DNA from: a phage
Assembly: GCA_012628545.1 (NCBI GenBank)
Contig: GCA_012628545.1_3035.1
DNA: 64,000 nucleotides
Reading direction: 5' to 3' (one strand)
Shown: positions 56,899-62,618 of the stretch, piece by piece
Position numbering within the stretch: position 1 is the stretch's first letter
Layout: every line of letters starts with the position of its first letter
Made by a program: the position numbers and the translations under genes
The notes under the pieces: generated by a model
The model's input: only the letters and a program-made list of their open reading frames with translations
The model's database searches: none
Told to the model about the DNA's origin: nothing

Positions 56899-58326
56899 CT
56901 AAAATTTTAATTCATTTGCCAAAGCATCTAACTGTGCTCGAGTGGATTCATTTCTTTGATAGCGATTCTGTTCAGCCTGAATCTGTTGTGAACCTGCTAC
57001 TTCACTCACTTCAGTTGGAGTAGAATCTTGTTCAATTTCTACCCATTTCTGATTTCCCTTTTGAACACCCATCAAAAACTTATTCCACTTATTCTTATCG
57101 CCATATCGTGATTTGATTTGCTTAATGAGTTGTTGTTCAGCAGCTGCTAGCTCCTCGGTTTCAATGACCGCAAGCATAAAATCAGCTGTTGCTGGAAGAC
57201 CAGCAGATTCTGCGATATCACTCATGTTAACATCGGAAGAGTCCCAAGCTTGTTTACCAACCTGTGCTGCAGTCCAAAGAACAGTTTCGGTTTCAACAGC
57301 AAGAGCACGCAATTCCTCTGCAATAGCTTTAACAGTTGTGTAACTATTTTCTGAGTAAACTCTGATGCGGCAAGATTTACAAATACCTAGATAGTCGACA
57401 ATAATGATTGTTGGAACAAAATTCTTTTTGAGCTTCAATTCATTCAAGAGAGACCTGAATGTGTTAGCATCTGCCCCACCAGTAGGGTACTGTTTAACAA
57501 TTAAACGACCGAGAGTAGATTTCTCACGCCATTTTTCCATTTTTCCTTTATACTCAGCGTAAGAAATATGCCCATCATCAATGTCATCAAGAGAAACATC
57601 GAGCATATTAGCGTCAATACGTTTAGCACAGACTTCTTCTGCCATTTCCATGGAGATATAAAGAACGTTATGTCCAAGCTGTAAATAATCTGCTGCTAAT
57701 GAACACAATCCTAATGATTTACCAACGTTAACGCCAGCCATTAAAACGTTCAGTGTTCCAGTTTCAGCTCCGCCTTTAGTAATTTTGTTTAGAATTCTGA
57801 GTTTAAATGGAACCTTACGAGCTTTATTCATATAAGATAGCCAACGTGCTTCGTAGTCATCCATCCAATCATGACCAACGTAACTATCAAATGAAATTGA
57901 TAATGCTTGGCGCATGATGTCAGGAATAGCACCAACATCCGGCATTTTCTTATTTCGTTTTTCCGGAGGAAGCTCAGCATTAGTTTGAATTTCGATTATT
58001 TTAGACGTAGCATTAAACATCGCCCTCTGCTGAACATATTTTTCAGTTTCTTTTACTAACCAGCTGTGGTCTTCCGGAGAATCAGCTAGTTTTGAAATAA
58101 GTGTTTTTACACCAGAATATTCTGTTTCCGTAAATGAACTATTTTCTAATGCAACATTTAACGCATTAATAGATGGAACGCTATGATACTCATTGACATG
58201 AGATTTAATTAATTTGAATGTATTTTTAGCTGGACCACTTTCAAAATATTCTGAATCCATATATGGCCAAACTTTTGAAAAATAAGCTTGATCAAATATG
58301 AGATGAGAAAGAATAATTTCTACCAC
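56899..58326 (-). CDS. 41: replicative DNA helicase (DnaB-like)
   Basis: 475-aa ORF with Walker A GVNVGKS; apparent GTG start. Confidence 0.95.
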   Translation of the reverse strand: MVEIILSHLIFDQAYFSKVWPYMDSEYFESGPAKNTFKLIKSHVNEYHSVPSINALNVALENSSFTETEYSGVKTLISKLADSPEDHSWLVKETEKYVQQRAMFNATSKIIEIQTNAELPPEKRNKKMPDVGAIPDIMRQALSISFDSYVGHDWMDDYEARWLSYMNKARKVPFKLRILNKITKGGAETGTLNVLMAGVNVGKSLGLCSLAADYLQLGHNVLYISMEMAEEVCAKRIDANMLDVSLDDIDDGHISYAEYKGKMEKWREKSTLGRLIVKQYPTGGADANTFRSLLNELKLKKNFVPTIIIVDYLGICKSCRIRVYSENSYTTVKAIAEELRALAVETETVLWTAAQVGKQAWDSSDVNMSDIAESAGLPATADFMLAVIETEELAAAEQQLIKQIKSRYGDKNKWNKFLMGVQKGNQKWVEIEQDSTPTEVSEVAGSQQIQAEQNRYQRNESTRAQLDALANELKF

Positions 58327-58335
58327 ACTTACTCC

Positions 58336-58698
58336 TTAAAAGAATTTAAACTTTTTCTTTGACCTTTTATTAAATGCATCTTGTAGTTGCATTGTAATAC
58401 ATTTTTCTACATGAGGAGCTAACTCAGCTTTTCTTTCTTGGTCAAGAACAGCAAAGTCCATTACGACTTTTCCATTAACCCAATCTAATTTTGTCACATA
58501 CACAATGTGTGTAGAACCATCTTCTAGTTTAATGACAATCTCCTGGATAACATTTTCCATGGCAGATTTAATTATCTTAAGAGACTCATTAAAAAGACGT
58601 TCTTTTCTTTCTTCTTCCCCCTCCGAAGAGGGGGATTCATCGATAATTTCTAGATCTAAATCTAAATCATCTTTATTCATTAAATTCTTCCATATCAC
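58336..58698 (-). CDS. 40: gp40 head-assembly accessory protein
   Basis: 120-aa ORF between uvsX and 41. Confidence 0.6.
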   Translation of the reverse strand: MIWKNLMNKDDLDLDLEIIDESPSSEGEEERKERLFNESLKIIKSAMENVIQEIVIKLEDGSTHIVYVTKLDWVNGKVVMDFAVLDQERKAELAPHVEKCITMQLQDAFNKRSKKKFKFF

Positions 58699-59854
58699 TT
58701 AACTGTTCGAGGTCAGTTTCTAAATCAGCTGCCGATTTACTTTTACTTTCTGGGGATTTAAATTTTTCAACTTTTGAGTTAATTAATTCATCAACTTCAG
58801 CTTCAACAATTTCATTACTATCAATAGCACCTAACTGATAAGCACGTTTAATAGCATCTCGGAATGGTTGATGCTTAAATAAAGGACCCCAGAATGTAGT
58901 GCAGTTAGTATCTTTTGCACGCCAAGATTTTTCTTCGCGAATCATCTCGCCGGTTTCTTCATCAAGAAATTCACGAGCATACCAACCATTTTTAGGTTTT
59001 ACTACAAATCCTAATTCTAGAGCCATATCTAACAATCCAGAATAAGGATCGATACCACCATCAAATTTAACATCAATAAAGAATTTACTTTTTTCTTTAA
59101 CGGTACGAGATTTTTCTACATTTAGAACAAATTGATACCCCTGAAGATCAGAACCATCTTTAATCTGGCGCTTACCGATAATGAATACAGTATCAGCCGA
59201 ATACATTACGCCTGTACCACCTGTCATCACGGTTTTACTAAACATTTCAATTGTTTCAATTGTATGGTTAACCGCAACACATGGAATATTTTTAATGCTA
59301 AAATAAGGAGTAACAATACGGAATAATGACTTCAGTGATTTAGCACGAGTCATATCTGCCACAGATTTTTCATTCAAGGCATCTTCCGTTTCTTTCTTAG
59401 AAGCCATATTACCAATTGAGTCGATGAATACTATAACCTTTTCACCACGCTCAATAGCTTCAAGCTGATTCACCATATCAATTTTCAGCTGTTCAACTGA
59501 TTGAATTGGCGTATGAATTACACGTTCCGGGTCAACTCCCATGGATCGCAAATAAGCTGGAGTAATACCAAATTCGCTATCATAAAATAGACAAACCGCG
59601 TCAGGATATTTGTTCAAATATGCCGCAACCATAGTCAAAGACATATTTGATTTAAAGTGTTTAGAAGGCCCTGCGAAAATAGTTAAACCAGACTGCATAC
59701 CGCCATCAATCGCACCAGAAATAGCAATATTAAGCATTGGAATTTTTGTACGAATTACATCCTTTTCATTAAAGAATTTAGATGTAGTCAGTTCAGCAGT
59801 CATTTTAGAAGTGGAAGCTTTAATCAAACGGGATTTTAAATCTGCAATAGACAT
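58673..59854 (-). CDS. uvsX: UvsX recombinase (RecA-like)
   Basis: 393-aa ORF with Walker A GPSKHFKS; T4 UvsX. Confidence 0.95.
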   Translation of the reverse strand: MSIADLKSRLIKASTSKMTAELTTSKFFNEKDVIRTKIPMLNIAISGAIDGGMQSGLTIFAGPSKHFKSNMSLTMVAAYLNKYPDAVCLFYDSEFGITPAYLRSMGVDPERVIHTPIQSVEQLKIDMVNQLEAIERGEKVIVFIDSIGNMASKKETEDALNEKSVADMTRAKSLKSLFRIVTPYFSIKNIPCVAVNHTIETIEMFSKTVMTGGTGVMYSADTVFIIGKRQIKDGSDLQGYQFVLNVEKSRTVKEKSKFFIDVKFDGGIDPYSGLLDMALELGFVVKPKNGWYAREFLDEETGEMIREEKSWRAKDTNCTTFWGPLFKHQPFRDAIKRAYQLGAIDSNEIVEAEVDELINSKVEKFKSPESKSKSAADLETDLEQLSDMEEFNE

Positions 59855-59931
59855 TCATTTTTTCCATAGGCATCATTATATTTTCCTCACTGGTTAAAGA
59901 TAGAGTAATTATAACACAATAAATTTAGGCA

Positions 59932-60780
59932 TTAATCAACTGCTATTGGATGAATAGCATTAAACTTATGAAATGCTTCTGATTTTTCTTTACGCGAAAC
60001 ACACATGCGAAGAACCTTTAATGGCTCGTCTTCTTCACCCAACGATTTTCGTTTTTCAATATTCGACGTTTTCCAACGAGCTTGCTCTGGAAACTCTCTA
60101 TTGATTTGCTCAAGCGCTCTATTATGTTTAGAATTACTACGAATTGAACTACACCCACCAGGAGCTTGCGCTTTACCTGATACAACCAGATATTTGAACA
60201 AGGCCAAATGCGGATAACCTTGATTAATTAAATTGAGAAATGCATACATATCTTCGCACAAATCAATTTTTCCATACCCAATTTGTTCTGTCGTAAGTTT
60301 TCCAAGGTCATACCATGTATTCGTGAATCCATATGAATTTTCACGATAATTACCCCAAGATGAAGTAATTTTAAAAATTGGTAGGCGAGCATGACCGTGA
60401 TAATACCCACAATCCATGGCATCTTCGACGTATTGAATCAATTCATAGAACTGTTCATGAGTCAATTGATTGACTTTATCCACACAACGACGGTCATCTC
60501 TTTTTCGCATTGAACTCATACGAATAGTAGTATCATCGTCAATCATCCAGATTCGTTGGCCTGCATACATATCAGTAATTGCTTTACGAGTACCGGCAAT
60601 TCCGTTTACATCATCAGGAATAGTTATAATTTTAGCTCTAGACCCATAGGCATCATAATAAGCTTTTTCTTCATGTTCACGCACTACAATATGGGGTTCA
60701 TAATCAGTCGGAAACATATCAAGGGCAGAAACTGCCCCGACCCGCTGATAACTTGGAATTACGAATTGAATCATTTCCAC
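59932..60780 (-). CDS. putative DNA hydroxymethylcytosine glycosyltransferase (non-T4-type)
   Basis: 282-aa ORF with DxD-like motif WMIDDDTTI; occupies the beta-gt position between uvsX and gene 42 but does not resemble T4 beta-gt as I recall it. Confidence 0.45.
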   Translation of the reverse strand: MEMIQFVIPSYQRVGAVSALDMFPTDYEPHIVVREHEEKAYYDAYGSRAKIITIPDDVNGIAGTRKAITDMYAGQRIWMIDDDTTIRMSSMRKRDDRRCVDKVNQLTHEQFYELIQYVEDAMDCGYYHGHARLPIFKITSSWGNYRENSYGFTNTWYDLGKLTTEQIGYGKIDLCEDMYAFLNLINQGYPHLALFKYLVVSGKAQAPGGCSSIRSNSKHNRALEQINREFPEQARWKTSNIEKRKSLGEEDEPLKVLRMCVSRKEKSEAFHKFNAIHPIAVD

Positions 60781-61511
60781 TCACCGTTATAATCTTTTTT
60801 CACAATATGAGTTTCGCCAGTATTCCACCAATGATCAACCAAGTAAAAATGACGAGAATATACATGAAGACTTCCAACATTCCATATAATAGAACCTGCT
60901 TTATACTGACGAGTTGAATCGCCTGCATTCAAATCAGATACTAATTTATCTAATACGTATTTTTGCCATGCATAATCATTACGGAATCCGAAGACCACGT
61001 CATTTGAGCGCATGCTTACTACTGCATTGACTTTCTTATCACGAATCAGGTACTGTACTGTATTCGTACACATGAAATCTGACATACCATCTTTATTGTA
61101 GTCAAATTGCATGGATGGACGAGTATAAATCATGATACCACGTCGAGAATCAGGATTTTGACCAAGTTCAGCTAAACACATATCATATTGAGCATAGTTA
61201 TCTTCTGACCAGATAGCCCAACCATAATTCGAGTTAATTTCACCTTTAGAAGATGCTACTTGTTGCCAAATCTTCGGTGTTTCACCTGGAATATCTTTAA
61301 CAAACAGACTTTGAGACTTGTACCATTCAAGTTCACGCTGAATGTATTCATCATTAAGAGCGCCAAAAATAAAGGGTTCATCTGCTACAAATGATGCGCC
61401 AATAATTTCAATAGTTTTAACACCAGTTTTATCAACTACGAAATCTTTTTCCTTTAATGCAAGCCCCAAATGAAGACGGATTTCTTCAACTGTCATAGAG
61501 TCACTAATCAT
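60771..61511 (-). CDS. 42: dCMP hydroxymethylase
   Basis: 246-aa ORF beginning MISDSMTVEEIRLHLG; thymidylate-synthase fold; T4 gp42. Confidence 0.95.
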   Translation of the reverse strand: MISDSMTVEEIRLHLGLALKEKDFVVDKTGVKTIEIIGASFVADEPFIFGALNDEYIQRELEWYKSQSLFVKDIPGETPKIWQQVASSKGEINSNYGWAIWSEDNYAQYDMCLAELGQNPDSRRGIMIYTRPSMQFDYNKDGMSDFMCTNTVQYLIRDKKVNAVVSMRSNDVVFGFRNDYAWQKYVLDKLVSDLNAGDSTRQYKAGSIIWNVGSLHVYSRHFYLVDHWWNTGETHIVKKDYNGEWK

Positions 61512-61514
61512 TTA

Positions 61515-61664
61515 AACCTCAATTGATGCATTCATATTTAAATTGTAACAGTAATAAACCCCACCCTATGATAAGAGTTGGAATCATAGCAGGAACTGTT
61601 ACGCTATAGTATATACTTATTATAACCATCAAGATTAAAAGCAACACTGTTATAATTTTGCTTT
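61515..61664 (-). CDS. small membrane protein (49 aa)
   Basis: Hand-translated MKSKIITVLLLILMVIISIYYSV...; below ORF-track cutoff. Confidence 0.35.
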
Positions 61665-61916
61665 TCATTCTTTCTCTCTGATGATAATTACCTGATTTGG
61701 CTGTGCAGACTTTTTAGTTTCACCAGCAATTGACCAAATAAGTGTAATAAACCAACCAATAATTGACCAGTTAAACAGTAAAGATGTGAAAAAGATTCCT
61801 ACTGTCGATTTTGACCCACGCATCAAAGCAATAAACCATGGAAGCATGTATATAATAATAGCCAACACACCTGAAACTAAAACCATAAAAATTGAACCTG
61901 CTACTAAAGTTTCCAT
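61665..61916 (-). CDS. imm: superinfection immunity protein
   Basis: 83-aa two-transmembrane ORF; T4 Imm. Confidence 0.8.
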   Translation of the reverse strand: METLVAGSIFMVLVSGVLAIIIYMLPWFIALMRGSKSTVGIFFTSLLFNWSIIGWFITLIWSIAGETKKSAQPNQVIIIREKE

Positions 61917-61923
61917 ATTTTCC

Positions 61924-62304
61924 TCACTTAGTCAAATTTTTTACGCATGAATTATAAGAATTCACTACATACTCCATCGGAGCATTTTTACCAGTACGCC
62001 ATTGGTAATTATTGGCCCAATTAGCCCAAAGCTCGGCGCAGTAGTTTTCAATTTTTTCTTCGCGTGTAATTACATCCGAATTACGATATGCTTGAGCAGA
62101 TTCATCTGGACGAATAGCTTCGTCAAAATTCGCCTGCATTTGTTCGACTGTTTGCTTTGGAGCTTCTTTATAACACTTGACATTAGGATTATAAAATTTG
62201 CTTGAACAGTTTACAATTTTTCCTGCATCAGACTGATTTACTACCGGTCCTTGAGCTACACAACCAGTAAGACCTAATGCAATAACCAAAATAGCGATTT
62301 TCAT
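61924..62304 (-). CDS. putative lipoprotein
   Basis: 126-aa ORF with signal peptide and lipobox LTGCV. Confidence 0.5.
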   Translation of the reverse strand: MKIAILVIALGLTGCVAQGPVVNQSDAGKIVNCSSKFYNPNVKCYKEAPKQTVEQMQANFDEAIRPDESAQAYRNSDVITREEKIENYCAELWANWANNYQWRTGKNAPMEYVVNSYNSCVKNLTK

Positions 62305-62314
62305 AATAATTTCC

Positions 62315-62551
62315 TCAAATGCAAGTAGTAATTACTCCAGTAGTGCTTATGCAGGTATTACCCATTTGCACACCTAAAGATCCATTTGTATTCACATGAA
62401 GATTATCATCAATTTTAACTGATATTTTACCATTAGTGTGAATAACAGTGCTAGATTCAATCACAGGTTGAGTATCATTTTCAACACTAACAAATGGAAC
62501 TGCTGCTAATGCAACTAAACAAACTGCTAAGCATCCCATAACAATTTTCAT
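62315..62551 (-). CDS. hypothetical secreted protein
   Basis: 78 aa from internal ATG (MKIVMGCLAVCL signal peptide); ORF-track extension reads through a promoter. Confidence 0.45.
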   Translation of the reverse strand: MKIVMGCLAVCLVALAAVPFVSVENDTQPVIESSTVIHTNGKISVKIDDNLHVNTNGSLGVQMGNTCISTTGVITTCI

Positions 62552-62569
62552 TTTATTCTCCAAATCCGT

Positions 62570-62618
62570 ATCAGTAGTTGATAGTTGTATAGTACCATGG
62601 AAGAACATTCTTGTAAAC
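62570..62618 (-). promoter_or_regulatory. early promoter (conserved family)
   Basis: GTTTAC, 15 bp, TGGTACTATACAACTATCAACTACTGATACG. Confidence 0.5.

Follow-up and report, generated by a model that had tools for sequence, protein, structure and literature searches.

Organization of the uvsX-gene 42 interval

The phage DNA analysed here (the window; 64 kb) carries, between uvsX and gene 42 and in the same orientation as both, a minus-strand open reading frame at 59932..60780. It reads 282 aa from a GTG codon, begins MEMIQFVIPSYQR and contains WMIDDD in the middle of the protein; its location, length and WMIDDD motif had been described in an earlier note on this DNA. This location is that of ba-gt, the gene for beta-alpha glucosyltransferase, in phages T2 and T6. 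Features of the locus are listed in Table 1.

Table 1. Features of the ba-gt locus and its surroundings in the window
Feature	Position	Strand	Basis or remark
ba-gt / ggt / g-gt coding sequence (Pfam TAGT)	59932..60774	-	280 aa from ATG; 100% to AR1, PF20691, PHROG 842, AF2 model
ATGA overlap, ba-gt start codon (60774..60772) / gene 42 stop codon (60773..60771)	60771..60774	-	sequence
Arg11 codon CGG, N-terminal IPSYQR motif	60742..60744	-	invariant in 49 sequences; His in all T2 records
DDD motif, GAC GAT GAT = D79-D80-D81 (ATG numbering)	60532..60540	-	sequence; alignment; model
uvsX recombinase, downstream flank of ba-gt	58673..59854	-	ORF; AR1 and T4 comparison
Gene 42, dCMP hydroxymethylase, directly upstream of ba-gt	60771..61511	-	ORF; aligned gene annotated in AR1, T4, T2, T6
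49-aa ORF	61519-61668	-	between gene 42 and gene 43
imm	61665-61916	-	between gene 42 and gene 43
imm.1	61924-62304	-	between gene 42 and gene 43
97-aa ORF	62315-62608	-	between gene 42 and gene 43

An ATG codon at 60774, two codons inside the GTG-started frame, corresponds to the annotated ba-gt start in phages AR1, vB_Eco_EH2 (EH2) and T2, and gives a gene of 843 nt. A Shine-Dalgarno-like sequence, GGTGAG, is located 5 nt upstream of this ATG, and the GTG itself overlaps GGTGAG. As judged from the sequence, ba-gt probably starts at this ATG rather than at the GTG at 60780. The same ATGA junction between ba-gt and gene 42 is annotated in AR1, EH2 and T2. The earlier note had the 3' end of the ORF overlapping gene 42 by 10 nt. 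An overlap is present, but it is the 5' end of the ORF that meets the 3' end of gene 42, and the length of 10 nt holds only when counted from GTG. The overlap of 4 nt from ATG is the likely one, because the relatives start at the ATG and the Shine-Dalgarno-like sequence precedes it, whereas the GTG falls on that sequence. The ATGA overlap suggests that gene 42 and ba-gt may be translationally coupled.

The base composition of ba-gt (GC 0.377, GC3 0.26) matched that of the neighbouring genes, and this comparison gave no sign of recent acquisition; ba-gt therefore appears to be a long-resident gene. Scanning of the region 59700-61700 was uninformative for both promoters (9 promoter-like sites against 9.4 expected) and terminators (one terminator-like hairpin, inside the ba-gt coding sequence, against 0.7 expected). 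The sole terminator-like match is a hairpin rich in GC, GGGGCAGTTTCTGCCCT, with a T-rich tract after it, on the minus strand at 60722-60738, within ba-gt codons 13-18. The same hairpin is kept in T2 and T6, and it might influence ba-gt translation or mRNA stability.

In T4, the interval between uvsX and gene 42 holds segA, encoding a GIY-YIG homing endonuclease, together with the 351-aa b-gt; the earlier note had correctly placed a beta-gt of this length there. The window lacks segA, and the spacer between ba-gt and uvsX is only 77 nt long (59855-59931). On the minus strand of this spacer, TGTGTTATAAT resembles an extended -10 element. By tblastn, no homologue of T4 SegA, T4 b-gt, or the alpha-gt of T4 and EH2 was detected within the 64-kb window (best E = 1.4). 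For alpha-gt this absence is expected, because gene 43 is cut off by the end of the window and the gene order of relatives places alpha-gt beyond gene 43.

The segment 61519-62608, which separates gene 42 from gene 43, is occupied by a run of small minus-strand ORFs, mostly encoding hydrophobic products. For the 97-aa ORF, the corresponding AR1 annotation is that of a shorter hypothetical protein without database match. On the other side of uvsX, the ORF for the gene 41 helicase (56899-58326, minus strand) reads 475 aa from GTG and has the length of T4 gp41 (1428 nt), whereas the gene 41 coding sequence of AR1 is annotated as 1362 nt; annotation of the start codon is thus inconsistent among relatives.

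Identification of the ba-gt gene

Megablast with the segment 59600-61100 matched 595 phage records, 457 of them with a query coverage of at least 80%, and the gene under these matches is repeatedly annotated "beta-glucosyl-HMC-alpha-glucosyl-transferase". By tblastn, ba-gt homologues were found in 689 phage records (685 with coverage of at least 80%). The identity was 96-100% in Tequatrovirus, including phages of Escherichia, Shigella, Yersinia, Salmonella and Citrobacter. T4-like phages of Klebsiella and Enterobacter have the gene in the corresponding position with 64-66% identity, and the homologue of Serratia phage Muldoon is 47.5% identical. Because of this wide occurrence and a composition like that of its neighbours, we consider ba-gt on sequence grounds to be a real gene and not a chance ORF.

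When translated from the ATG, the window protein is 100% identical to AR1 BAI83052, annotated as ba-gt, and differs by one residue (H106R) from the protein of EH2. EH2 was also the best database match to window positions 40000-64000, with 97.5% nucleotide identity over 24 kb. Compared with T2 there are three substitutions, and compared with T6 two substitutions and a 1-aa deletion, giving about 99% identity to both gene products over the full length (98.6% for T6 by tblastn). The protein matched PHROG 842 (E = 2e-89) and Pfam PF20691, the TET-associated glycosyltransferase (TAGT) family, with 39.1 bits against a gathering score of 27.5 over profile positions 2-205 of 205; no Pfam match besides TAGT was obtained at E <= 10. 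The T4 b-gt was ruled out as the identity of this ORF (BLASTP best E = 0.28), and the impression from sequence alone that the protein does not resemble T4 beta-gt was thereby confirmed. The earlier note had proposed a glycosyltransferase other than beta-gt, for example a T2/T6-style beta-glucosyl-HMC alpha-glucosyltransferase, and the matches to AR1, T2, T6, PHROG 842 and PF20691 agree with that proposal. As already known for its relatives, the ORF is an ordinary T2/T6-type beta-alpha glucosyltransferase gene, of which the position, fold class and product have been described. The majority of T4-like coliphages have this gene in the same place.

Predicted fold and conserved residues

Two protein-database searches yielded about 50 relatives with identity down to 13%, nearly all labelled PF20691, from which a 49-sequence family alignment was made. 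The confident AlphaFold model of the window protein was built on this alignment (AF2; pLDDT 92.4, pTM 0.90), whereas a single-sequence run gave a pLDDT of only 39. The model consists of alternating strands and helices in a single Rossmann-like alpha/beta/alpha domain, which matches solved GT-A enzymes, and the Foldseek comparison with PDB agreed with the GT-A classes. In a viral structure library, the best match was the same-named protein of Klebsiella phage PKO111 (TM 0.95), followed by phage proteins with the TAGT domain. The window protein is thus predicted to have the GT-A and not the GT-B fold. Neither high identity to a T-even beta-gt nor a fold foreign to glycosyltransferases, the two outcomes that would have contradicted the earlier note, came out of the protein and HMM searches and the structure prediction. 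Since a PDB sequence search with the window protein gave chance matches only (E >= 1.5), there appears to be no solved structure of any TAGT family member. For the T6 protein, an AlphaFold3 model also has the GT-A fold, as a sister to GT2, while T4 alpha-GT and beta-GT are both GT-B (PMC13216743).

Across the 49-sequence alignment, R11, R63 and D79-D80-D81 are invariant. In the model the three aspartates directly follow strand 74-78, the fourth beta-strand of the nucleotide-binding half of the GT-A domain, and from alignment and model together DDD is predicted to be a DxD-type motif for binding of metal and nucleotide-sugar. R11 is predicted to sit in a nucleotide-sugar-binding N-terminal motif.

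Comparison with known glycosyltransferases

The closest known system is ba-gt of T2 and T6, which shares with the window gene its length, its position between gene 42 and uvsX and the ATGA junction, at about 99% identity. No difference of substance was observed; the window protein has retained Arg11, where T2 has His, as well as the complete DDD and Gln10. We take the T2/T6 enzyme to be glucosyl-DNA beta-glucosyltransferase, EC 2.4.1.28. The T2 and T6 genes were reportedly cloned by Winkler and Rueger in 1993.

According to the literature, T4 b-gt (PDB 1JG7, PF09198), which occupies the same slot, likewise uses UDP-glucose and attaches the sugar to modified phage DNA in a beta linkage. The acceptors differ, being bare HMC for T4 b-gt and alpha-glucosyl-HMC for the T2/T6-type enzyme. 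The two proteins also differ in length (351 and 280 aa) and in fold (GT-B for T4 b-gt, predicted GT-A for the window protein; PMC13216743). Similarity to the T4 protein was found neither in sequence nor in fold. The earlier note had spoken of a swap at this position. The slot does differ from that of T4, but the implied change is better taken in the opposite direction: alpha-GT together with TAGT is the common combination, and of 753 phage genomes that encode a GT, only 6, including that of T4, have alpha-GT and beta-GT, which makes T4 the exception (PMC13216743).

In relation to the PF20691 family, the window protein exceeds the gathering threshold with a match along the whole 205-position profile and shares R11, R63 and DDD, and TAGT-annotated phage proteins match the window model in structure with TM 0.65-0.77. 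Most members, however, are only 13-30% identical to the window protein, come from unrelated phages and have no acceptor assigned to them. The partner pathway of the window enzyme would also be different, with gp42 hydroxymethylase and alpha-gt in place of a TET/JBP dioxygenase. Cellular GT-A enzymes of the GT2 type, such as TarS, TarP, SpsA and the catalytic domain of cellulose synthase, share just 8-16% identity with the window protein; their acceptors are polysaccharide, teichoic acid or lipid, in contrast to the sugar on duplex DNA for ba-gt.

Predicted role in DNA glucosylation

The primary references on gentiobiosyl-HMC in T2 and T6 date from 1960-62. The homologous beta-alpha glucosyltransferases of these phages yield about 5% gentiobiosyl-HMC in T2 DNA and 72% in T6 DNA (PMC6024577). 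In gentiobiosyl-HMC, a second glucose is beta-1,6-linked onto alpha-glucosyl-HMC (PMC11078745, PMC13216743). Deletion of ba-gt from T6 leaves only alpha-glucosyl-HMC, without gentiobiosyl-HMC, and makes the DNA sensitive to Brig1 glycosylase (PMC11078745); DNA of T6 delta-g-gt becomes a substrate of BapA as well (bioRxiv 10.64898/2026.02.25.707755). By LC-MS of the Tequatroviruses EH2, NR1 and Some of the Durham collection, about one-third 5hmdC and about two-thirds alpha-5-gentiobiosyl-mdC were detected, and the beta-glucosyl form was not found (PMC13390438). The same report notes that the position of TAGT is syntenic with that of T4 beta-GT and calls the role of TAGT 'likely' (PMC13390438). 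EH2 encodes, besides the 280-aa enzyme, a 400-aa alpha-gt, identical to that of T4 at 365 of the 400 residues, about 7 kb beyond gene 43.

The present analysis established the identity of the window gene together with its family, its predicted fold, the conservation of its motif and its synteny. By analogy with its relatives, this phage presumably also carries alpha-gt and makes the same product. In the proposed pathway, gp42 would make hydroxymethyl-dCMP, replication would place HMC in the phage DNA, and alpha-gt, encoded past gene 43 and outside the window, would add alpha-glucose to HMC. The ba-gt product would then use UDP-glucose to attach a further glucose to this alpha-glucose through a beta-1,6 linkage, with inversion, giving gentiobiosyl-HMC. 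From general knowledge of glycosyltransferases, such a beta-1,6 transfer should suit a GT2-like enzyme that works by inversion and combines the GT-A fold with a DxD motif. Altogether it is very probable that the ORF encodes a 280-aa enzyme of the PF20691 family, GT2-like with a GT-A fold and a DxD motif, which extends alpha-glucosyl-HMC to gentiobiosyl-HMC. The suggestion of the earlier note that a different sugar or linkage on HMC follows from the swap has to be modified: the enzyme would not replace beta-gt on bare HMC with a sugar of another kind, and would instead extend alpha-glucosyl-HMC by a second, beta-1,6-linked glucose. Because all family-invariant residues are intact in the window protein, the virion DNA is expected by analogy to be like that of T6 and EH2, with mostly gentiobiosyl-HMC, bare HMC making up about one-quarter to one-third, and beta-glucosyl-HMC absent.

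Which host defences can recognise the DNA of a phage depends on the kind of sugar attached to its hydroxymethylcytosine. In vitro, gentiobiosyl-HMC withstands both Brig1 glycosylase and BapA, to which alpha-glucosyl-HMC is susceptible; enzymes of the GmrSD type cut DNA with either modification (PMC11078745, PMC13216743, bioRxiv 10.64898/2026.02.25.707755). The second sugar of the proposed pathway would thus shield the DNA from enzymes that recognise alpha-glucosyl-HMC. Recognition of ba-gt therefore allows the type of modification, and the likely defence sensitivities, to be predicted from sequence. For this phage the assignment is one of routine annotation, not discovery, as T2, T6 and hundreds of their relatives are already known to have this gene, with the same product and in the same position.

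Alternative readings and the alleles of T2 and T6

Two T6 records carry lesions in ba-gt. In AP018814 (L006:1507-2346), an in-frame 3-nt deletion removes one Asp of DDD. In MH550421 (L007:3138-3977), CAG is changed to the amber codon TAG at codon 10, as placed by DNA alignment, and the coding sequence is annotated from a downstream ATG with 261 aa. These lesions may be mutations of particular stocks or errors of sequencing; otherwise, ba-gt would have to tolerate damage in the laboratory. The window allele has neither of these changes, nor the R11H substitution of T2.

The T6 lesions indicate that ba-gt can be damaged without killing the phage, and in this respect the window ORF might be a non-functional remnant or a mis-called frame. 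We regard this as extremely improbable, since the frame is intact with all invariant residues, the composition is native, the fold is confidently predicted, and the gene persists at the same position in the Klebsiella and Enterobacter T4-like phages despite their divergence. An enzyme of other specificity, with a different donor sugar or linkage, or acting directly on bare HMC as a stand-in for beta-gt, would be conceivable in a family as heterogeneous as TAGT, whose homologues pair with alpha-GT or beta-GT or occur alone, so that specificity may vary across the wider family (PMC13216743); arabinose is the sugar used by other T4-like phages, RB69 for example (PMC6024577, PMC13390438). Such variation hardly applies to the window protein, as judged from its near-identity to the T2 and T6 enzymes. 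A changed specificity is very unlikely in view of the 98.6-100% identity to proteins of phages with known DNA chemistry (T6, T2 and EH2), the lack of detectable beta-glucosyl-HMC in relatives by LC-MS, and the specific loss of the second glucose in the T6 knockout.

Closer to the preferred reading, that of a gentiobiosyl-HMC-forming enzyme, is a weak allele of the same family as in T2, with mainly alpha-glucosyl-HMC and a few percent of gentiobiosyl-HMC. The T2 protein differs from that of the window at just three positions, yet the yields of gentiobiosyl-HMC in T2 and T6 are far apart (PMC6024577), so near-identity does not guarantee high activity; the ratio could also depend on how strongly the gene is expressed or on the balance between its product and alpha-gt. 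Against this stand Arg11 of the window protein, invariant in the 49 relatives and replaced by His in T2, and the single-residue distance (H106R) from the enzyme of EH2, the DNA of which is about two-thirds gentiobiosyl-HMC by LC-MS. The exact N-terminal peptide with H11, moreover, was found among the matching records only in those of T2 and in SV76. A weak T2-like allele is accordingly judged improbable, and the gentiobiosyl-HMC-forming enzyme remains preferred.

All T2 records examined carry R11H in ba-gt, at the arginine invariant in the family (AP018813, L005:3283-4125; MH751506, L008:3286-4128). The exact N-terminal 39-mer containing H11 was present in just 8 of 682 matching phage records, seven of them T2 and the eighth SV76. 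From sequence comparison, R11H is a candidate explanation for the low gentiobiosyl-HMC content of T2. It is a tentative idea, which we would sooner doubt than adopt, that the window allele, with Arg11 and DDD intact, represents the fully active natural form and that the private R11H of T2 causes the difference between T2 and T6, known for some sixty years. If this is true, the window phage would be T6-like, and introduction of the window allele into T2 would make T2 DNA mostly gentiobiosyl-HMC.
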